Shown piece by piece: positions 1 to 9,347 of a stretch of DNA of 10,174 bases. The position numbers and the translations under genes were made by a program. Under the pieces are notes generated by a model, which saw only the letters and a list, made by a program, of their open reading frames with translations, searched no databases and was not told where the DNA came from. This stretch comes from a virus (Duplodnaviria; Heunggongvirae; Uroviricota; Caudoviricetes): the IMG/VR virus record IMGVR_UViG_2548876862_000020. One strand, 5' to 3'. Position 1 is the stretch's first letter. Each line of letters starts with the position of its first letter.

Positions 1-1251
1 GTGCTTACCGATACAAAATTAAAAAACCTCAAGCCGCAGGACAAACTGTACAAGGTCTCCGATCGTGACGGGCTGTATGTAGCTGTGCTTACGTCAGGCA
101 CGGTCTCGTTTCGCTATGACTACCGTATCAACGGTCGCCGCGAAACACTGGTAATCGGGCAGTATGGGCGTGACGGTATCAGCCTGGCAGAAGCGCGAGA
201 AGAACTGATTGCTGCAAAGAAGCTGCTTAAAGCAGGCCAGTCGCCGGCTGCGGCTAAACGTGACGGTATCAAAAAGATTCGTGGTGCCGAGACGTTTGCG
301 GTACATACCGACAGTTATATGAAACACGTCATCCTGGCTGACAGTACCCGCGCAATGAAGCAGACGGTGATCGACCGTGACATACTTCCGGTTCTTGGCA
401 ACAAAATGATGGCTGAAATTACCACATCGATGGTTCGTGATTTGTGTGACCGGATTGTCGAACGCGGTGGTCGGGCAACAGCAGTACAGGCCAGGGAAAT
501 CATCAGCAGCGTATACCGTCACGCCAATGACCGTGGTCATGGTTTGTTTAATCCTGCGGCTGACATTAAACCTTCGTCTATCGCCATATTTAAACCACGA
601 GAGCGAACACTGACACCAGAAGAAATTGGCCTGTTCTTCCGCACGCTGGATGCCATTGGTGCTATGGGCACTATGAAAATGGCTTTAAAGCTGGTGCTTA
701 TCACTATGGTTCGTAAAGGCGAATTCACCAATGCAACGTGGGATGAAATAGATTTTAAAAAATGGACATGGACAATTCCTTCAGACCGCATGAAGGGAAG
801 CCGGGCGCACGTTATTTACCTGCCTAAACAGGCACAGGATATATTGGTTGGGTTGCAGATGTGCGCTGGTGGAAGTGAATATCTGGTTCCTGGTCGTTAC
901 AATTTTCGGAAGCCATTATCTAATGCCGCGCTGAACTCTCTGATCGACAGAACGGTGAAAATAATAAATGAAGATGGTGAGCATATTCAGGGCTTCACCG
1001 TACACGATATGCGCCGTACAGCCAGTACGTTGTTGCATGAGGCTGGTTATCCTTCAGACTGGATTGAAAAGGCTATGGCACATGAGCAGAAAGGTGTGCG
1101 CGCCGTATATAACAAAGCGGAATACGCCAGACAGCGCGCCTACATGTTGCAGCAGTGGGCCGATATGATTGATTCCTGGATTAACAGGGAGCATACGGAT
1201 CTGATTCCGTTCTCCCCGTCGAAGTTTGAGAAGTGGATGGCGGGGGAATAA
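1..1251 (+). CDS. int: Phage tyrosine integrase, P4/IntA-like family
   Basis: 416-codon ORF from GTG at position 1. C-terminal region shows tyrosine-recombinase signature (MVRKGEF, HDMRRT, VRAVYNKAEY with candidate catalytic Tyr). N-terminus LTDTKLKNLKP resembles P4-type integrases. Start coincides with the window edge, so a few codons may lie upstream. Confidence 0.9.
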   Translation: MLTDTKLKNLKPQDKLYKVSDRDGLYVAVLTSGTVSFRYDYRINGRRETLVIGQYGRDGISLAEAREELIAAKKLLKAGQSPAAAKRDGIKKIRGAETFAVHTDSYMKHVILADSTRAMKQTVIDRDILPVLGNKMMAEITTSMVRDLCDRIVERGGRATAVQAREIISSVYRHANDRGHGLFNPAADIKPSSIAIFKPRERTLTPEEIGLFFRTLDAIGAMGTMKMALKLVLITMVRKGEFTNATWDEIDFKKWTWTIPSDRMKGSRAHVIYLPKQAQDILVGLQMCAGGSEYLVPGRYNFRKPLSNAALNSLIDRTVKIINEDGEHIQGFTVHDMRRTASTLLHEAGYPSDWIEKAMAHEQKGVRAVYNKAEYARQRAYMLQQWADMIDSWINREHTDLIPFSPSKFEKWMAGE

Positions 1252-1254
1252 CGT

Positions 1255-1449
1255 TTAATAGTTCTGCTGATTTTCTTCCATCTCTGCTTCTGCTGCCAGT
1301 GATTCAATTTTGTTTTCGAATATTGCTGACAGTGTTGCAAATTCAGCATCAGTGACAGCGGGAATTGGAACAAACCTGATCCCGCTGTGTGCAAGCATGT
1401 TTGCAGTTTCAAGGCATTTTCTTAAATCTGCTGGTGATGCCCTGTTCAT
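1255..1449 (-). CDS. Hypothetical small acidic protein (64 aa), translationally coupled to the methyltransferase
   Basis: Internal ATG at 1449-1447 of track ORF 1255..1569 overlaps the methyltransferase TGA stop (1448-1446) as ATGA. GGGAG sits 8-9 nt upstream. Stop lies 3 nt from the convergent int stop. The longer 104-aa form would overlap 120 nt of the methyltransferase gene and was not preferred. Confidence 0.5.
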   Translation of the reverse strand: MNRASPADLRKCLETANMLAHSGIRFVPIPAVTDAEFATLSAIFENKIESLAAEAEMEENQQNY

Positions 1450-2096
1450 GCAGCACGCTCCCGCCCCTGGTTGTCTGTTGGTGACAGCGGAGAATTGCTG
1501 AATGCATTTGTTAATCCGCCAATATCCAACGCGTATCCAGGGTGTAGTTGCACTGCCGGGTCTTCGCACTGATTACCCCAAACATCGAAGCCATGAGACG
1601 ACTGGCGGGCGAATAGTTCAATGCGAGAAACATCGCCTAACAATTGCACAAGTTTTTCACGAACGACATCTGGTTTTCTTGAGTGCTCAAGCCGCGGTGC
1701 GGTAAATGACTGAACGATCCCTGCATTAATGCGCGGAGGTAGTTTTCCCTTTACCGCAAACAGGCAATCTTCACTATTGGCGCGAGTCATGTGTCCCATA
1801 CCCATAACCAGTTTATCTGGTTGTCGACTACCACATTTTATCCACGTGAATCCCTTCATGGTCATCAGACGGAATCCCCAGGCTTCAACAACTTTTAGTG
1901 CTTCGAGTGGTTGTGTTGGCACCCACCACATGGCCAACAGACAGTTTTCATCGGCCAAATCCCACACAGGAAGGCGGCAGATATCCAGCACACTCATAAC
2001 CGGATATTTAAAACCGGCACCGCGATTACCATCTGCGGCTTTATCCCGGTATACCCAGGGTGGATCTGCATAGATTAGCGTGTATTTCTTAGTCAT
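1446..2096 (-). CDS. Orphan N6-adenine DNA methyltransferase, MT-A70 family
   Basis: 216-aa ORF with N-terminal IYADPPW (DPPW catalytic motif of MT-A70-type amino-methyltransferases). No adjacent restriction endonuclease gene. Lies in the prophage left arm, as do Dam-like methylases of Stx-type phages. Confidence 0.85.
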   Translation of the reverse strand: MTKKYTLIYADPPWVYRDKAADGNRGAGFKYPVMSVLDICRLPVWDLADENCLLAMWWVPTQPLEALKVVEAWGFRLMTMKGFTWIKCGSRQPDKLVMGMGHMTRANSEDCLFAVKGKLPPRINAGIVQSFTAPRLEHSRKPDVVREKLVQLLGDVSRIELFARQSSHGFDVWGNQCEDPAVQLHPGYALDIGGLTNAFSNSPLSPTDNQGRERAA

Positions 2097-2388
2097 AAAC
2101 CACCCCGCAACATCCTATGCCGCTATAGTCGCCACGGCGAAGGCCGTTACCTTTTGTGATACATTGGTCCCTGCGAACCGCGATCCTTGCACGCTCAACA
2201 TCACCAGAAGCAACATCCATACACTGAAGCCAAAGGTGGGCAGCAATGCGGAACTGCCCTTTTTTCTCTCTTTCAATCGCGCGTTTTTCGATCTCTATCG
2301 CCGCAGGAGTAACGGCAACAACCTTTGAAGGGCTGCGCATTGAAACCTTGTTCATGTGATATTTTTCAAGTCGGCTTAACTTTCTCAC
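2089..2388 (-). CDS. Hypothetical basic protein (99 aa) with C-terminal Cys cluster; first gene of the methyltransferase block
   Basis: ORF with GTG start at 2388 preceded by GAGAGGG. Its 3' end overlaps the methyltransferase start by 8 nt. Arg/Lys-rich, ends in GIGCCGVVYD. Family not recognised with confidence (possibly ANR-like small regulator). Confidence 0.5.
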   Translation of the reverse strand: MRKLSRLEKYHMNKVSMRSPSKVVAVTPAAIEIEKRAIEREKKGQFRIAAHLWLQCMDVASGDVERARIAVRRDQCITKGNGLRRGDYSGIGCCGVVYD

Positions 2389-2497
2389 TTAATCCAACCC
2401 TCTCTGAAAATTAATGCCAGCAGATAAAGCCATGCTGAAACAGAGGCCAGGAATAAGTACCATCCTGACCATTTGCTCCAGTGCCTTAGCAGCACAC

Positions 2498-2746
2498 TCA
2501 TGCCGCGTTGCTCACAGGACGATATACACGTTGCTGAACAGGAGGTTTTTTACCCTGGAACTCTGCCGGGCTTGCTGCCTGACGTTCATCAAGCCAACGC
2601 TCAACTTCATCACGGTTCCATGCGCAGCGTTTGTCAGTGATATACCAGCGTTTAGGAAATTCCCCTGCGCGCTCCATACGGTCGATAGTGCTCCATGACA
2701 GTGGCACCACCGCCAGGAGTTCCTTCTTACCTAATGCACCTTTCAT
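2498..2746 (-). CDS. AlpA-family HTH protein (prophage regulatory / excisionase-like)
   Basis: 82-aa ORF with ATG at 2746 preceded by AGAGAGG. Segment LLAVVPLSWSTIDRMERAGEFPKRWYITDKRCAWNRDEVERW matches the AlpA/Vis-type winged-HTH pattern. Confidence 0.7.
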   Translation of the reverse strand: MKGALGKKELLAVVPLSWSTIDRMERAGEFPKRWYITDKRCAWNRDEVERWLDERQAASPAEFQGKKPPVQQRVYRPVSNAA

Positions 2747-2795
2747 AAATACCTCTCTTGGTTGCAGTGCGGCGCGCGTGGCGCCGCGGTGGTGG

Positions 2796-3677
2796 TTACA
2801 TAGATGTTTCGTTTAATTCTTCCCGACGAACGCTGTAAACGTCGGTGGCTTTTGCCAGCAGTTCGTCATCATCTGAAAGTTTTTGTGCAATGTATTTGTA
2901 AGCCTTATCCAGTTCGGAGACAGTGCTGTAATTCATCGCTGCGCTGGTAAAGGCCATCAGCATTTCTTCTGGATCACGGCTATCCGCTTTACGCGTTTGC
3001 TCATCATGCTTTTTCGCTGGTTTAGCGTTGATCAGACTGTTCATTCCCGCAGCAGTAGTCGTTTGCGGAGTAATGTCTCGCTCAACGCGCGGTGCCGTTT
3101 CCTGTAATTCGTCAGGGGTGTAAACACCGAGAAGCACATCAGGAGCGTGCAGGCGAGCCCATCGTTTCGTGCAAAGATAGGCAAGCTGCTGGCGCGGATC
3201 CTGTTCCCACAATGGAGAGTTACGCACTCCGGCTTGCGCCATACTGATGGTAAGCTCACGGGGTTCTGCTTCTCCTTTAAGAACTGCTGACACAGTTACC
3301 GTCAGATTCGGTGATTTATCTGTTTTGCCGTTAACATTCGACCAGTCACCGCTCCAGCGATAATTCAGGCGTGTCGCTAGCAGGCTGGAAGAGGATACGA
3401 CCGCGTTTACCAACTGTGCTTCGTAGCCTAACGTTCCGTTTACCACATGCGTTTTCTGCGCCACGGCGAAAGGGTTCATTCCCCACTGTGCCGCCTGCAT
3501 GGTCACCGCCAGACAATCGGAAGGTTTGCCTTCAAGATGTTTCGGTACAGTCGCTTTGCTTTGTGACATCAACTCCGCGAAACGCACCAGTTGATTCATG
3601 CCCTCGGGGCTGAAGATTGCCGCAGCAGTGCCTACAGTTGCGCCTGGTTGTGATGTGATTGCGATATCATTGCTCAT
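2796..3677 (-). CDS. recT: RecT/Bet-family single-strand annealing recombinase
   Basis: 293-aa ORF. Segments MQAAQWGMNPF and RVERDITP resemble lambda Bet / RecT. Start ATG overlaps the upstream exonuclease stop as ATGA (3677-3674). Confidence 0.85.
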   Translation of the reverse strand: MSNDIAITSQPGATVGTAAAIFSPEGMNQLVRFAELMSQSKATVPKHLEGKPSDCLAVTMQAAQWGMNPFAVAQKTHVVNGTLGYEAQLVNAVVSSSSLLATRLNYRWSGDWSNVNGKTDKSPNLTVTVSAVLKGEAEPRELTISMAQAGVRNSPLWEQDPRQQLAYLCTKRWARLHAPDVLLGVYTPDELQETAPRVERDITPQTTTAAGMNSLINAKPAKKHDEQTRKADSRDPEEMLMAFTSAAMNYSTVSELDKAYKYIAQKLSDDDELLAKATDVYSVRREELNETSM

Positions 3678-4495
3678 ACATACATATCCTGTTTACGTGC
3701 CCAGTCAGGGCGTTTAATAATTTCCACTCCGCCCCATTCATCGTTGATGCGGCATTCGTGATAGGTATTCAGATCCCGGCGGAACAGAGCGTGCCCGGCA
3801 TCGACATCCTGCGCATCCAGCTCGAACACGCGTACCGGATACCGACCACAATCAATGCTTTCGCTCACGGCAAGAAAGAAAAAACCATGCGTCTGACCAG
3901 TAACCCTCATTGCGCCTTCGCGGTACATTGCGTCCTGCACGTGGTAGCGGAATTCCTCGATGTGGCGTGCAAAACGGTCCATATCTGCAACCTTTTTCAC
4001 GTCGACGATCACGTTGTGCTCGTTCAGCCATTTGTCTGGACGAATGCGGCACAACTCACCAGTATCTTCATCGTTCCAGTACATTGATGCTTCGCAGTAA
4101 CCAGGTGCTTCCAGCATCCAGCGTGCCGCCGGGTGAGCCATTGCGCTATCACGCATCAGCTCCAGTTTCCGCCACTGCTCGGCATCAAGTACCGTAATCC
4201 CCATATCCGCCACATCACGAAGAAATGCCTCTTCGTCAGCTTTACCTTGTTTCGTCCGACGATCGAATTTCGGTGAAACAATGAAGCGTTTGTCGAACTC
4301 TCCAGGCTCCAGAAGCAGACAGTGCAATGCGGTTCCCATATCCAGTGCAGACTTTTTCTCTTCGTCTTCTGGTGCTGCCTGAACCCATTTAAGAAGCGCC
4401 GGATTCTTGGCAACCATGTCCAGTTGCGACTTACTCACGCCGTCACCTGCGTGGTAGTCTTCGTTGCTGATGTCGAAATAAATTCCCGGTTTCAT
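3674..4495 (-). CDS. RecE-like short-form exonuclease (exonuclease VIII-like, PD-(D/E)XK fold)
   Basis: 273-aa ORF starting MKPGIYFDISNEDYHAGDGVSKSQLD, typical of prophage short exonuclease VIII-like proteins. Candidate D...E-x-K nuclease motif around RPDKW...VDVKK. Paired and translationally coupled with recT. Confidence 0.8.
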   Translation of the reverse strand: MKPGIYFDISNEDYHAGDGVSKSQLDMVAKNPALLKWVQAAPEDEEKKSALDMGTALHCLLLEPGEFDKRFIVSPKFDRRTKQGKADEEAFLRDVADMGITVLDAEQWRKLELMRDSAMAHPAARWMLEAPGYCEASMYWNDEDTGELCRIRPDKWLNEHNVIVDVKKVADMDRFARHIEEFRYHVQDAMYREGAMRVTGQTHGFFFLAVSESIDCGRYPVRVFELDAQDVDAGHALFRRDLNTYHECRINDEWGGVEIIKRPDWARKQDMYV

Positions 4496-4965: not shown

Positions 4966-5042
4966 TTACCGTTGAGGTAATGATTATGCGTATCTGGTTT
5001 GATGTCAATAGATATGAGTTAAAAAAATTACCCATAAGGTAA
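4966..5042 (-). promoter_or_regulatory. pL-like promoter flanked by two operator palindromes
   Basis: Minus strand reads operator TTACCTTATGGGTAA (5042-5028), 19 bp, -35 TTGACA (5008-5003), 17-bp spacer, -10 AATCAT (4985-4980), operator TTACCTCAACGGTAA (4980-4966). Operator centres are 62 bp apart. Confidence 0.6.
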
Positions 5043-5099: not shown

Positions 5100-5708
5100 T
5101 TATTGTTTGCTTTTTTCGTTCTGGTTGATGACAAATTCAATGTAACTTTCGATCTTTGCTTTCTCGGTTTCGGGTAACAATGCGTAGCGCGAGCGGTCAT
5201 AGTTGATAGTCGCAGGGTCGTGCGGGTGAATCAGTAGTTCATATCCGTGACGCCCGAATGCGGATGCAACATTCTCCAGGGTGGAAATGGAAACGCTGAC
5301 CTCATTGTTTAACAGGCGGCTGATTGTCACCTGGGCGACGCCGGATGCGCGGTGAAGTTTTCCCTGCGTTGAAAGGTCGCGGCTTTCGCTCATCCAGCGT
5401 TCCAGGTTGTGAGCCGCCAGCTGACCAATGTCGCTTGGTCCGACAGGCTGAAAACCTTCCTGAGAAAGCGAGCGATCGATATCAAGCCAGTTACGGGGTT
5501 TATTGGCGGCAGCTTCAATTTTTCGCGCAACCTGGTCGCCGATAACCTTCTTGCCAAGAGCCCAGCGGTTTACCAGATTTGCCTGAGTTCCAAGTTTTTC
5601 TGCCATCCGCGTCTGAACACCATTGAATTCACGGTCGATCAAGTCGTTGAGATTTTGCCTGCGGACGTCCTGGATACTTTTCATTTTCTGGAAAATCGCC
5701 TCATACAT
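5100..5708 (-). CDS. Prophage immunity repressor (CI-like position) with two HTH domains and no apparent S24 peptidase domain
   Basis: 202-aa ORF divergent from the cro-like gene across the operator region. N-terminal HTH (QTRMAEKLGTQANLVNRWALGKK) and a second XRE-type HTH (SGVAQVTISRLLNNEVSVSISTLENVASAFG). No room or motif for a LexA-like Ser/Lys autocleavage domain. Confidence 0.75.
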   Translation of the reverse strand: MYEAIFQKMKSIQDVRRQNLNDLIDREFNGVQTRMAEKLGTQANLVNRWALGKKVIGDQVARKIEAAANKPRNWLDIDRSLSQEGFQPVGPSDIGQLAAHNLERWMSESRDLSTQGKLHRASGVAQVTISRLLNNEVSVSISTLENVASAFGRHGYELLIHPHDPATINYDRSRYALLPETEKAKIESYIEFVINQNEKSKQ

Positions 5709-5739
5709 GAATCAGTAGATGATTCAATTTAAAGCAATA

Positions 5740-5813
5740 TTACCCAACAGGTAAATGCACCCCATAGGTAACTATCCTTGATTTTTGTTACCTTATGGGT
5801 GAATATTTATTAT
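5740..5813. promoter_or_regulatory. OR-like operator/promoter region between repressor and cro-like genes
   Basis: Three palindromes: 5740-5754 ttacccaacaggtaa, 5757-5771 gcaccccataggtaa (degenerate), 5788-5802 ttaccttatgggtga. Candidate pR: -35 TTGTTA (5785-5790), 17 bp, -10 TATTAT (5808-5813). Candidate pRM on minus strand: -10 AATCAT (5724-5719), a few nt before the repressor ATG. Confidence 0.55.
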
Positions 5814-5838: not shown

Positions 5839-6069
5839 ATGAGCGATAACGGACATTTCGATTTCAAAAAGCACTGGCTTGCACTTACTCCGGATGAGCG
5901 TGAAGCCTTCGCACAGGAAGCCGGAACGACGAGTCACTATATCCAGACTCACTTAACAGGTAAGCGCAAAATGCCAGGTAAAGTATTGATGAATGGGCTT
6001 TTTAAAGCCTGTAAATCAAGACAATGGTTGCGCTCAAAAGCAGAACTGGCATACTTCTTCTACTCATGA
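5839..6069 (+). CDS. Cro-like HTH regulator (YdaS/Cro-type)
   Basis: 76-aa ORF divergent from the repressor. HTH-like segment LTPDEREAFAQEAGTTSHYIQTHLTGKRKMP. Occupies the cro position. Confidence 0.65.
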   Translation: MSDNGHFDFKKHWLALTPDEREAFAQEAGTTSHYIQTHLTGKRKMPGKVLMNGLFKACKSRQWLRSKAELAYFFYS

Positions 6070-6090: not shown

Positions 6091-6114
6091 AGACCGCCAT
6101 CCGGCGGTCTTTTC
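6091..6114 (+). terminator. Intrinsic terminator after the cro-like gene (tR1-like position)
   Basis: Stem agaccgcc (6091-6098) / ggcggtct (6103-6110), loop atcc, followed by TTTT (6111-6114). Confidence 0.6.
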
Positions 6115-6219
6115 ATATCTATTCGCACCTCAAAGGTAATAAAAAACCAAATCTGGTTGATCTTTTTTTTGTGTCAGCACAAAATAACCGTAATCCCAAT
6201 ACTAATAACAGGGCTTACC

Positions 6220-6420
6220 ATGGAAATCATTACACGTATTGATGCCGCAAAGCGCGGACTTAAACGCTACTACACCGGAAAACCATGTAAGCACGGACAT
6301 GACAGTGAACGCTGGGTTTACAACGGACACTGTGTTGAGTGCACCATGGAATCAAACCGTCGCATCAGGGCAGAGATTAAGCAGATCATGATTAATTCCT
6401 CCCCACAACATTCAAGCTGA
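6220..6420 (+). CDS. Small Cys/His zinc-ribbon-like protein (66 aa) at the cII position
   Basis: Internal ATG 6220 of track ORF 6157..6420. Upstream part of the track ORF overlaps the terminator region and is hydrophobic junk. Motif C-K-H-G-H ... C-V-E-C. Confidence 0.5.
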   Translation: MEIITRIDAAKRGLKRYYTGKPCKHGHDSERWVYNGHCVECTMESNRRIRAEIKQIMINSSPQHSS

Positions 6421-6435
6421 TAGCGGAGATTAATC

Positions 6436-7251
6436 ATGAGCAGACATGCAACAGATTGGGCCTGGGAGACAGATCCAGGTAGCTCGTCATTAAAGCTCAT
6501 ACTGCTCTCGATGGCTGACAGAGCCGATGAATATAACCTCTGCTACCCCAGCATAGAACGCCTCGTTAAAGACACTTGCCTGAATAAAAAAACCGTACAG
6601 GCCGGGCTTATATCGCTCATGAAAATGGGGCTTATTTCAGATACCGGAGAGAGAAAGGGTGCGACGAAAAGAGTGCGGGTTTTCTCTCTTAATATAACCA
6701 AAAACGGGAACATTAAAGGCAACCGGGAGGGAGGTAATGAACCCAAAAACGGTAATGTTACCGAAAACGGGAATATACCCAAAAACGGGATGTTGAATAT
6801 ACCCAAAAACGGGATGTTGAATGATCCCAAAAACGGGATCCAGAACCAGTCATATAACCAGTCATTTAACCAAGAGAGGGAGAGCAGGACAAAAACCGGG
6901 GATTCTGTTCCTCATGACCCCGGCGCAAACAACGCCGTGATGAATAACTTTGTTCCTCCTGGTGGGCTAGGGCAATTAGGCAAATTTGTCATGCATGAAC
7001 AATGGCAACCATCAGATGACTTTCTTCGGAAAAGCTCATTGCAGGGGATCTACCTGGACAGTCTGCCAACGGCACAGGAACTTGCAGAGTTCAGAATTTA
7101 CTGGATGGCTGAGGGTAAGGCATACCATCAGGCACAGTGGGAGCAGAAGCTGGCAAGGCGGCTGCAGATTAGCAGACAGAAGCAATCAACATTACCTGAT
7201 AACAACGTTCCGCACTGGAACAGCCCTGAAGCGTGGGAGGATTTCTTGTGA
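6436..7251 (+). CDS. Replication initiator, O-like (winged-helix N-domain, repeat linker, C-domain)
   Basis: 271-aa ORF, ATG 6436 preceded by GGAG at 7 nt. Contains DNA iterons internally. Immediately followed by and overlapped with a lambda P-like gene. Confidence 0.8.
   Translation: MSRHATDWAWETDPGSSSLKLILLSMADRADEYNLCYPSIERLVKDTCLNKKTVQAGLISLMKMGLISDTGERKGATKRVRVFSLNITKNGNIKGNREGGNEPKNGNVTENGNIPKNGMLNIPKNGMLNDPKNGIQNQSYNQSFNQERESRTKTGDSVPHDPGANNAVMNNFVPPGGLGQLGKFVMHEQWQPSDDFLRKSSLQGIYLDSLPTAQELAEFRIYWMAEGKAYHQAQWEQKLARRLQISRQKQSTLPDNNVPHWNSPEAWEDFL
6698..6840 (+). repeat. Origin-like iterons inside the O-like gene
   Basis: Six copies of core CCAAAAACGG(G/T)A at 6698, 6743, 6762, 6778, 6802, 6826. 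Two exact 24-bp tandem units at 6775-6798 and 6799-6822. Followed by tandem CAGTCAT(A/T)TAACC at 6847-6871. Encodes the low-complexity PKNG peptide repeat. Confidence 0.75.
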
Positions 7252-8033
7252 ACAACGTTTTTACCGCGATACAAAACCGTGACGGAGAAGCCCTTTATCG
7301 CATGTCAGGTTATGAGCATCAGTACGTCAACAATGACAATGTGGTGAACATGTCAGCAGAGAGGCTTGTTGATGCCCTTTTCAAACAGCTGAAACAACTG
7401 TTTCCGGCGGCAGTGGTAACCAACCTGAAGACGCCAGAGCAGGAAGTTGCTGCAAAACAGCAGTGGATTGCTGCGTTTGCCGAAGGGGGGATCCGAACCC
7501 GTGAACAGGTTTCTGCTGGTATGCGCCACGCCCGCGCCAGTGAATCTCCGTTCTGGCCGTCGCCAGGGCAATTTATCAAGTGGTGTAAAGACAGCAAGAT
7601 GGTTCTTGGCGTCACCATTGACGATGTGATGGCGGAGTTTCACCGGTACAGCAAGGAAAAAAGTTTATATCCTGGTGGTCCCGAAAGATTCCCGTGGCGA
7701 CATCCGGTTATGTACTGGGTCGTATGTGATACCCGCCGTGCAATGTATCAGCGCCAGCTTAGCGAGATTGAGGTTGAGAAACATGCGCGCAGGCTGCTCG
7801 ATGATTGGGCGAAAAAGGTGGCTTCCGGACAGCAGATACCCGATCCGGTGATCAGCATACAGGCAAAGCCAGAACCCATGAGTACGCCTCCGGACACAGG
7901 GAGAGACGTTTACCATCCACCAGGGCGAAGTTTCGGGTGTATGCCTAACGCCGCTACCCTGGGGGGAATAACACCGGCGCAGTGGCTGATGGAGGAATAC
8001 AGGCGGGGAAAGGCGGCAGGATTTATCAAGTAA
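7248..8033 (+). CDS. Lambda P-like replication protein (DnaB helicase loader)
   Basis: Segment QQWIAAFAEGGIRTREQVSAGMRHARASESPFWPSPGQFIKWCKDS parallels lambda P as recalled from memory. Preferred start GTG 7248 has GGGAGG 8 nt upstream and overlaps the O stop as GTGA. Track start 7233 has no SD. Confidence 0.8.
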   Translation: MNNVFTAIQNRDGEALYRMSGYEHQYVNNDNVVNMSAERLVDALFKQLKQLFPAAVVTNLKTPEQEVAAKQQWIAAFAEGGIRTREQVSAGMRHARASESPFWPSPGQFIKWCKDSKMVLGVTIDDVMAEFHRYSKEKSLYPGGPERFPWRHPVMYWVVCDTRRAMYQRQLSEIEVEKHARRLLDDWAKKVASGQQIPDPVISIQAKPEPMSTPPDTGRDVYHPPGRSFGCMPNAATLGGITPAQWLMEEYRRGKAAGFIK

Positions 8034-8070: not shown

Positions 8071-8147
8071 TTACCTGTTGGGTAATAAAATATTCTAAAA
8101 TCTATTGATTTCGTGTCTTATGTGGTTTTTAATTACCTCAGGGGTAA
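8071..8147 (+). promoter_or_regulatory. Third operator-flanked promoter (p3) upstream of the DUF1064-like gene
   Basis: Operator TTACCTGTTGGGTAA (8071-8085), 19 bp, -35 TTGATT (8105-8110), 17-bp spacer, -10 TTTAAT (8128-8133), operator TTACCTCAGGGGTAA (8133-8147). Same spacing as pL. Confidence 0.55.
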
Positions 8148-9036: not shown

Positions 9037-9347
9037 CAATCACAAAACAACGAGTAGAAAAAATCATATATCGCCATGAAATGGGACTGAACAGCGATGT
9101 CACTGCCGAAGAGGTTTATGACCTGGCTGTACTGGCGCTGAATTTATCAAATATCGCAAATCTGAAGCGATACGAGCTTGATATGGGAGGTTGTGACTCA
9201 TGCGGTCAGGATTGTGGCGCTGACATGACTGAAGATTCTGATGGCAATTATGTCCTGTTTGATGACGTGGTTAAGTTGTTTGAGTTTGATACAACCACTC
9301 GGAAGCTAGAAAGCCCAGCAAAGGAGGCAACCAGTGAGCAAGATTGA
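9033..9347 (+). CDS. Hypothetical protein (104 aa) with C-x2-C-x3-C motif
   Basis: ORF coupled to the upstream gene by ATGA. Contains GGCDSCGQDCG and an acidic tail. 3' end overlaps the next gene by 14 nt. Confidence 0.5.
   Translation: MTITKQRVEKIIYRHEMGLNSDVTAEEVYDLAVLALNLSNIANLKRYELDMGGCDSCGQDCGADMTEDSDGNYVLFDDVVKLFEFDTTTRKLESPAKEATSEQD

Follow-up and report, generated by a model that had tools for sequence, protein, structure and literature searches.

A conserved 66-residue protein with a predicted zinc site, probably DNA-binding, encoded ahead of the replication genes in an epsilon15/phiV10-type phage

The 66-residue (66-aa) protein encoded at positions 6220 to 6420 of the window (the 10,174-nt stretch of phage DNA analysed here) is best explained, with a confidence somewhat above even, as a small zinc-stabilised, probably DNA-binding protein made from the first cistron of a separately promoted replication operon. 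By sequence it is a single, nuclease-free copy, extended by a helix, of a repeat that fronts phage HNH/endonuclease VII nucleases. The core of this small basic protein would be one zinc-stabilised finger, and a long Arg/Lys-rich helix, with C38 and C41 at its start, would contact DNA. In the epsilon15/phiV10-type phages, one copy of the module has lost its nuclease partner and become fixed as a strongly conserved gene. The replication operon would lie behind a post-cro terminator, with its own weak promoter beside an imperfect repressor operator, and the zinc protein would be made together with the replication proteins after derepression or infection, and not in the lysogen. Its action would then fall in early lytic development, where it would either tune promoters or assist the replication region.

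The gene, its start codon and its neighbours

The reading frame extends from an ATG at 6220 to a TGA at 6418-6420, giving 66 codons plus the stop, and its product is MEIITRIDAAKRGLKRYYTGKPCKHGHDSERWVYNGHCVECTMESNRRIRAEIKQIMINSSPQHSS. The protein matches the profile of PHROG 1081, a family annotated as function unknown, with an E value of 7.7e-43, and residues 1-66 align with positions 1-66 of the 67 in the profile. The same 201-nt CDS is annotated in E. coli RefSeq (WP_000402893.1), O157 typing phage 10, Enterobacter phage Tyrion, and epsilon15 (gp40). Comparison with the Tyrion, Superficieibacter, and Klebsiella orthologues gives a dN of 0.05-0.12, with dS saturated (2 or more), and an omega of about 0.02-0.04. 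The full-length PHROG match, the RefSeq CDS, and the low omega bear out the 66-aa ORF proposed in a preliminary description of this DNA; the gene is real, conserved, and under strong purifying selection. The window belongs to a phage of the epsilon15/phiV10 type (genus Uetakevirus) whose complete genome measures 39.8 kb, and of 5426 complete E. coli genomes about 540 carry the gene's region as a prophage.

The features of the window that bear on the gene and its neighbours are as follows.

1-1251, plus strand: integrase gene, starting at window base 1 and facing away from the early-left genes
1446-4495, minus strand: genes for an MT-A70 methyltransferase, a PerC-like protein, an AlpA-like protein, RecT, and an exonuclease
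5100-5684 (as annotated), minus strand: repressor gene
5839-6069, plus strand: 76-aa gene in the cro position, PHROG 35 (transcriptional repressor)
6091-6114, plus strand: terminator-like GC hairpin (6091-6110) and T run, directly 3' of the cro-like gene
6210-6213, plus strand: Shine-Dalgarno-like AGGG, 6 nt before the ATG at 6220
6220-6420, plus strand: coding sequence, with its stop codon, of the 66-aa zinc-module protein (PHROG 1081; orthologous to epsilon15 gp40 and E. coli WP_000402893.1)
6386-6439, plus strand: perfect 11-nt inverted repeat (6386-6396 / 6429-6439) with a CCUC/GGAG extension, -17.2 kcal/mol, z -2.1
6436-7251, plus strand: O-like replication initiator gene (HTH_36 and DnaT DNA-binding domain), immediately 3' of the 66-aa gene
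6697-6836, inside the O-like gene: five copies of CCCAAAAACGG, four exact and one with one mismatch
7233-8033, plus strand: lambda P-like helicase loader gene, third in what is most likely the same operon

The start at 6220 is favoured by the spacing of the AGGG, by the N-termini of the orthologues, and by stops in the upstream frame of relatives. Purine-rich motifs occur at the position of the AGGG in relatives, and in the alignment the N-terminus reads M/V-[EK]-I-I-T-R in all orthologues. The frame 5' of this start runs into a stop within 1-11 codons in 7 of 10 relatives examined. A longer ORF beginning with the TTG at 6157 was rejected: the upstream frame is closed in most relatives, the TTG has no Shine-Dalgarno sequence, and its three bases open a conserved -35-like hexamer, TTGATC. 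The preliminary description had allowed that the 66-aa frame might lack conservation or that the 6157 start might be the one used; the purifying selection on the frame and the upstream stops of the relatives speak against both. Two ORFs on the opposite strand (6202-6330 and 6318-6500) were also dismissed as fortuitous, the plus frame being the one under selection.

Homologues of the zinc module are present but unannotated in several deposited genomes, namely TL-2011b, phage BP9 (hit H1), and Klebsiella phage JD001 (hit H16). In Escherichia phage TL-2011b (locus L004, 3001-3213), a 70-codon frame with a TTG start lies where the annotation leaves a gap, between the genes for the cro-like and O-like proteins.

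The order of cro-like gene, terminator-like hairpin, 66-aa gene, O-like gene, and P-like gene places the 66-aa gene in the position of cII, as had been proposed. It is most likely the first cistron of a replication operon that encodes the zinc protein, the O-like protein, and the P-like protein. At every orthologous locus (from Escherichia, Salmonella, Klebsiella, Enterobacter, Superficieibacter, Pantoea, and Erwinia), the repressor and the cro-like gene come first, then about 150 nt of spacer, then the zinc-module gene and the replication genes; no Uetakevirus-type locus examined departs from this slot, irrespective of its repressor or O allele. The stop codon of the zinc-module gene usually overlaps or abuts the next start, which is mostly that of the replication initiator and, in epsilon15 and PAT1, that of a cytosine methylase.

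Identities among these loci vary from gene to gene. In TL-2011b, the repressor and the cro-like gene are 99% identical, the zinc protein 60%, and the O-like protein 46%; in the Klebsiella loci, the repressor is 45% identical, the O-like protein 36-46%, and the zinc protein 77-79%. Across loci whose repressor is 45% or whose O protein is 36-46% identical, identity of the zinc protein is 77-85%. Judged from these comparisons, the zinc-module gene is a mosaic unit of its own, tied neither to the immunity genes nor to the replication genes, and therefore no partner is deducible from linkage. The best 80 loci of an IMG/VR linkage scan are near-identical throughout and give no extra resolution.

The same arrangement bears on the suggestion that the protein is a replication accessory factor, which would be made in a fixed ratio with the O-like initiator and would help origin recognition, origin opening, or helicase loading with no regulation of promoters. 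Its cistron always directly precedes the replication genes, and the stop/start overlap with the next gene is often of the translationally coupled kind. The CCCAAAAACGG copies, for which 0.2 would be expected, are most likely origin iterons, as in lambda, and they lie about 300 bp downstream. In this allele, moreover, the inverted repeat at 6386-6439 is predicted, as RNA, to pair the 3' end of the zinc CDS with the Shine-Dalgarno sequence and ATG of the O-like gene. Such a hairpin would sequester the O-like start, and only translation of the zinc ORF would open it. The hairpin belongs to this allele only; it is absent in the Superficieibacter relative, and many other relatives have overlapping stop and start codons in its place. 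Against an accessory role, the identities above show no co-variation of the zinc protein with the O allele, and in epsilon15 the cytosine methylase gene intervenes before the replication gene and a P-like gene is missing. To our knowledge, lambda-type O/P replication needs no such factor. All in all, we regard an accessory role in replication as unlikely.

The metal site, the predicted fold, and the module family

Two Cys/His clusters, C-K-H-G-H at residues 23-27 and C-V-E-C at residues 38-41, lie in the middle of the protein. The codons of the predicted ligands are given below.

6286-6342, plus strand: C23-x3-H27-x10-C38-x2-C41 ligand codons, with C23 at 6286-6288, H27 at 6298-6300, C38 at 6331-6333, and C41 at 6340-6342

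In an alignment of 27 orthologues, C23, G26, H27, S29, E30, R31, and C38 never vary and C41 hardly does; residue 25 is H, R, or Y. The conserved G26 and R31 fall between the ligand codons. A wider view comes from 387 copies of the module extracted from distant proteins, at or below 50% identity. C23 and C38 are conserved in 100% of these copies, H27 and C41 in 99%, and H25 in 28%. Because of this conservation, the predicted ligand set is C23, H27, C38, and C41 (C-x3-H-x10-C-x2-C), and the presence of four conserved Cys/His ligands marks the protein, as far as its sequence can indicate, as a zinc-binding module in the general sense.

The AlphaFold2 model, made with the orthologue alignment, is confident, with a mean pLDDT of 90.4. 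A short helix (residues 6-11) comes first, followed by a β-hairpin whose strands span 16-18 and 30-32, and then by a long helix (39-60). The loop of this hairpin carries C23 and H27, and the N-terminus of the long helix carries C38 and C41. The model thus predicts a treble-clef-like fold, judged by the placement of the ligand pairs, and not a two-knuckle zinc ribbon, in which both ligand pairs sit on β-hairpin knuckles. Of the "zinc-ribbon" put forward in the preliminary description, the Cys/His protein stands, with four candidate ligands that are invariant in the family, but H27 takes the place of H25 in the ligand set, and the ribbon itself gives way to a hairpin knuckle combined with a CxxC at a helix N-terminus.

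The C-terminal helix is conserved as well. R48, I53, and K54 are nearly invariant in the 27 orthologues, and positions 43-50, in the helix after the CxxC, are R/K-rich throughout the module copies of the family. The 66-aa protein as a whole has 12 basic and 7 acidic residues.

An exhaustive search with a profile of the orthologues yields 15,984 cluster representatives (50% clustering) at E <= 1e-3. Among the best-scoring 150 of these, nearly all are proteins of 100-540 aa with 2-5 tandem copies of the module, and the copies are mostly N-terminal. The 66-aa protein matches the consensus of the module, R.EA...GL.RYFTG.PC..GH..ER....G.C..C, and the alignment consensus of the multi-copy proteins ends in the HNH motif DH..PL...G.....N........N..K. 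Partner domains found in 102 top hits are HNH (28), HNH_5 (26), Endonuclease_7 (16), and HNH_4 (12), counts that overlap; one phage module protein matches HNH_3. Annotations among the structural neighbours in BFVD include endonuclease VII, HNH, and group I intron endonuclease. Phage records show the module at the front of nuclease-type genes that stand free between terminase, portal, capsid, or queuosine-pathway genes, and it is common in lytic phages. The module is therefore shown to be a unit of roughly 45 residues that stands, in 2-5 copies, before the catalytic domain of thousands of phage HNH/endonuclease VII nucleases.

In these nucleases the module most plausibly supplies DNA recognition. 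From this domain architecture and from its charge, the 66-aa protein probably binds DNA as well; zinc modules can also bind RNA or protein. The module behaves as a modular unit by which homing-type nucleases recognise DNA, a concept covered in a review (PMC5714182). Xu and Gupta describe zinc modules of HNH enzymes that influence specificity, phage zinc-ribbon HNH nickases, and stand-alone zinc-domain proteins (PMC3592412).

The 66-aa protein does not have the features of an HNH or His-Me finger nuclease. Pfam scans of the protein and its 27 orthologues give no HNH-type match, the module has no conserved His or Asn beyond the four ligands, and catalytic residues are absent from the 66-aa protein; in its relatives, the nuclease is a separate C-terminal domain. 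More broadly, nothing meaningful emerges for the protein or the 27 orthologues from Pfam, NCBIfam, or PADLOC, the last giving no anti-phage defence family at E <= 1. Ogr_Delta and zf-dskA_traR give no Pfam match at E <= 1 for the protein or at E <= 10 for the 27 orthologues. NUMOD1, NUMOD3, and NUMOD4 give no significant Pfam match, the nearest being 1 of the 27 orthologues that hits NUMOD3 below threshold (E 0.028). The PDB holds neither a sequence match nor a fold match for the 66-aa protein; the one hit with the module profile, to the sarcosine oxidase delta subunit (E 0.67), was dismissed as chance. Literature searches found no paper with the motif strings, and the papers found on epsilon15, phiV10, SPC32H, and Uetakevirus do not include this gene.

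A single N-terminal copy of the module is also found in a 166-aa protein of Photobacterium indicum (locus L012, 5001-5501), encoded after a 275-aa ORF in an integrase-bearing island. The C-terminal domain of that protein has no Pfam hit.

With nucleases as relatives, the gene could be the decayed remnant of a free-standing homing endonuclease, or the module could have been kept for a protein contact, for example to block a competing nuclease or a host factor. The nearest non-orthologous relatives are indeed nucleases with the same N-terminal unit, typically encoded between essential phage genes, and the HNH family PF01844 has no match anywhere in the 39.8-kb phage. However, omega is 0.02-0.04 over the full length of the gene, its slot is fixed across Escherichia, Salmonella, Klebsiella, Enterobacter, Pantoea, and Erwinia, and the C-terminal helix, with R48, I53, and K54, is conserved. 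Jointly, these three observations exclude a neutral relic, whereas a protein contact may still apply, and the reading as a whole is very improbable.

Upstream signals and the AACC-N6-GGTT dyad

The spacer between the cro-like gene and the 66-aa gene begins with the terminator-like hairpin. In relatives, a hairpin at the terminator position is kept by differing sequences, and the T run is missing in some. Three further elements follow.

6125-6139, no strand assigned: imperfect repressor-operator-like site GCACCTCAAAGGTAA, with 2 mismatches to TTACC-N5-GGTAA
6145-6158, no strand assigned: dyad AACCAAATCTGGTT, overlapping the -35 by 2 bp, its centre about 41 bp upstream of the inferred start
6157-6185, plus strand: weak σ70-like promoter with -35 TTGATC (6157-6162), a variable spacer of 17 nt, and -10 CAAAAT (6180-6185)

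The sequence TTACC-N5-GGTAA has 11 matches in the window, for which 2.9 would be expected, and perfect copies flank other early promoters. At the 66-aa gene, the second operator expected 3' of the -10 is degenerate (4 mismatches by eye), and therefore repressor control may be weak. Elsewhere, two perfect copies exactly 62 bp apart lie at the leftward early promoter (4966-4980 and 5028-5042), and a second pair with the same 62-bp distance (8071-8085 and 8133-8147) lies at a promoter just 5' of the DUF1064 gene (8151). A cluster of three operators is present at 5740-5802, between the repressor and cro-like genes.

The element at 6157-6185 is a putative weak σ70 promoter aimed at the zinc-module gene, with a putative start near 6192. 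The call is made from conservation, that is, from a conserved -35 and -10 separated by a spacer that is free to vary. Of 8 aligned sequences, 6 have TTGATC, and the Erwinia and Pantoea loci each differ from it by one base; the AAAAT of the -10 is invariant in all 8, and the 17 nt between the two elements differ. The strongly conserved block in the intergenic spacer reads GGTAAT-N6-CCAwATnnGG-TTGATC. The promoter scores 8 of 12 consensus positions, below the scan threshold of 9. Together, the terminator, the gene's own promoter, and the adjacent imperfect operator suggest expression after derepression or infection, and not in the lysogen.

An IHF site at the TTGATC block was checked by eye and rejected, the consensus WATCAA-N4-TTR not being present. 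In the 6 aligned sequences that have it, the TTGATC hexamer includes a GATC (Dam) site. This phage carries an MT-A70 methyltransferase gene at 1446-2096, and in epsilon15 the cytosine methylase gene directly follows gp40.

For AACC-N6-GGTT, 0.44 occurrences would be expected in the 39.8-kb phage; three exact copies are present (P about 0.012), together with one further copy that has a single mismatch. Besides the one upstream of the zinc-module gene, the dyads lie at 9273-9286, 12515-12528, and 12135-12148 of the phage record G001 (2474-2487, 5716-5729, and 5336-5349 of locus L025). All four stand in one register against -35-like hexamers (TTGATC, TTTATC, TTTGCA, and ATAGAA). They precede the zinc-module/replication operon, a holin-holin-endolysin cassette, an Ant gene, and a small Ant-like gene. 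No such dyad is found at pL, at pR, or at the promoter after the P-like gene. Just 5' of the small Ant-like ORF is a LexA-box-like sequence, CTGTATAAATATACAG (L025 5431-5446; about 12230-12245 in G001). Phages of the SPC32H type reportedly have an anti-repressor under SOS control, a picture into which this sequence would fit.

The core of the dyad, CC-N6-GG, is shared by 7 of 8 aligned sequences; the Pantoea locus has a symmetric change to GCA-N4-TGC. Such a symmetric change of half-sites, from CCA..TGG to GCA..TGC, fits a dimeric, phage-encoded binder. The Pantoea locus is the only one in which the half-sites change, and there both the zinc protein and the cro-like protein have diverged. The dyad is thus a candidate site for a dimeric factor, which may be the zinc protein or the cro-like protein.

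If the zinc protein were that factor, it would bind as a dimer to AACC-N6-GGTT at four weak promoters and would either activate them, in the manner of a class II activator, or damp them. We think this unlikely. The excess of dyads over expectation, their common register, the kind of genes that follow them, and the conserved core with its symmetric change in the most diverged locus (Pantoea) all speak for it, as does the probable DNA binding of the module. On the other side, the 76-aa cro-like protein, sole product of the terminated pR transcript, is a more conventional candidate, being of the dimeric HTH kind. TL-2011b has the identical dyad with a zinc protein of only 60% identity, and self-activation would require basal read-through of the terminator. 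Finally, the four promoter modules are paralogous copies, so that their shared sequence may partly reflect descent. The corresponding evolutionary proposal, that a DNA-recognition repeat of homing endonucleases was domesticated as a promoter-specific regulator timing a delayed lytic stage, whether as an Ogr-like activator or as a Cro-like damper, is just as unlikely.

The lytic nature of these promoters also bears on the cII position of the gene. As a functional analogue of CII, the protein would establish lysogeny, for instance by activating transcription of the repressor or integrase gene from the same slot. That slot, between cro-like and replication genes and behind a tR1-like terminator, is what suggests such a role, and the window has no other recognisable CII homologue; the CII-like PHROG 725 gives only one weak hit in it (E 0.12), on the HTH region of the repressor. 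However, the 66-aa protein is not a homologue of lambda CII. It has no Pfam or NCBIfam hit to the lambda CII family, and no CII-like PHROG is among its hits. The preliminary description saw no cII-like HTH, and it was right: these three resources are negative, and the model is made up of a hairpin and one long helix. Neither the 66-aa gene nor its flanks showed a leftward promoter or TTGC-type repeats, and the integrase gene, from its position and direction, has its promoter outside the window. The candidate target dyads lie at promoters for replication, lysis, and anti-repressor genes, the opposite of a lysogeny-promoting set, and the module is common in strictly lytic phages. We therefore judge a CII analogue to be quite improbable. 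More generally, a role in lysogeny is unsupported and less likely than one in early lytic development, because the module is abundant in lytic phages and the candidate target promoters are lytic.

Significance and comparison with known systems

Although still labelled hypothetical, the gene occurs in roughly one in ten complete E. coli genomes and in all epsilon15/phiV10-type phages examined. The module has about 16,000 representatives (50% clustering) and no Pfam, NCBIfam, or PDB entry, and its annotation would cover domains of many phage nucleases. What is new, as judged from sequence, is a nuclease-associated, probably DNA-binding module that is used on its own, where the public record says hypothetical. 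If the stand-alone copy were a regulator, a DNA-binding module of selfish elements would have been recruited into a phage developmental circuit, and a gap would be filled in the ordering of gene expression in Uetakeviruses, which lack recognisable N, Q, and CII genes. Action at the dyads, if true, would represent an independent origin, in epsilon15-type podophages, of an Ogr-like activator or a Cro-like damper. If the protein were only a replication accessory, the finding would be an ordinary one.

The closest counterparts are epsilon15 gp40 (AAO06103.1), Tyrion gp42 (YP_009287774.1), ECTP10_01613 of O157 typing phage 10, and WP_000402893.1, which are the same gene at 52-100% identity. The PHROG 1081 orthologues share its length and slot and are all annotated as hypothetical protein.

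Lambda CII activates leftward establishment promoters through TTGC-N6-TTGC repeats and is turned over by FtsH. The 66-aa protein shares with CII (Phage_CII) only the slot, after cro and a terminator and before O and P. Unlike CII, it has neither an HTH nor a sequence match, its predicted fold is different, and its probable targets, if any, are lytic promoters.

P2 Ogr and P4 Delta are phage zinc-finger activators of late genes, about 70 aa in length, and Ogr activates weak promoters that have an upstream dyad. The ligands of Ogr are spaced C-x2-C-x22-C-x4-C, and its sites lie near -55. As a small phage zinc protein of about 70 aa, Ogr resembles the 66-aa protein and is the nearest functional precedent for a regulator acting at the dyads. 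However, the ligand spacing differs, the dyad is centred at about -41 and not near -55, and an Ogr_Delta hit is lacking.

The zinc proteins of Xu and Gupta (PMC3592412) are encoded beside cos and terminase, whereas the 66-aa gene lies in the immunity-replication region. Compared by description, the C-x3-H...C-x2-C spacing falls outside the motif types listed in the abstract of that paper. NUMOD-type modules are likewise small, shuffled among the catalytic domains of nucleases, and often tandem; the module of the 66-aa protein, which has no Pfam model, is zinc-based. The nearest likeness is to the phage HNH/endonuclease VII nucleases, in which the identical module is found as 2-5 tandem N-terminal copies, whereas the 66-aa protein consists of one copy and carries no nuclease domain.
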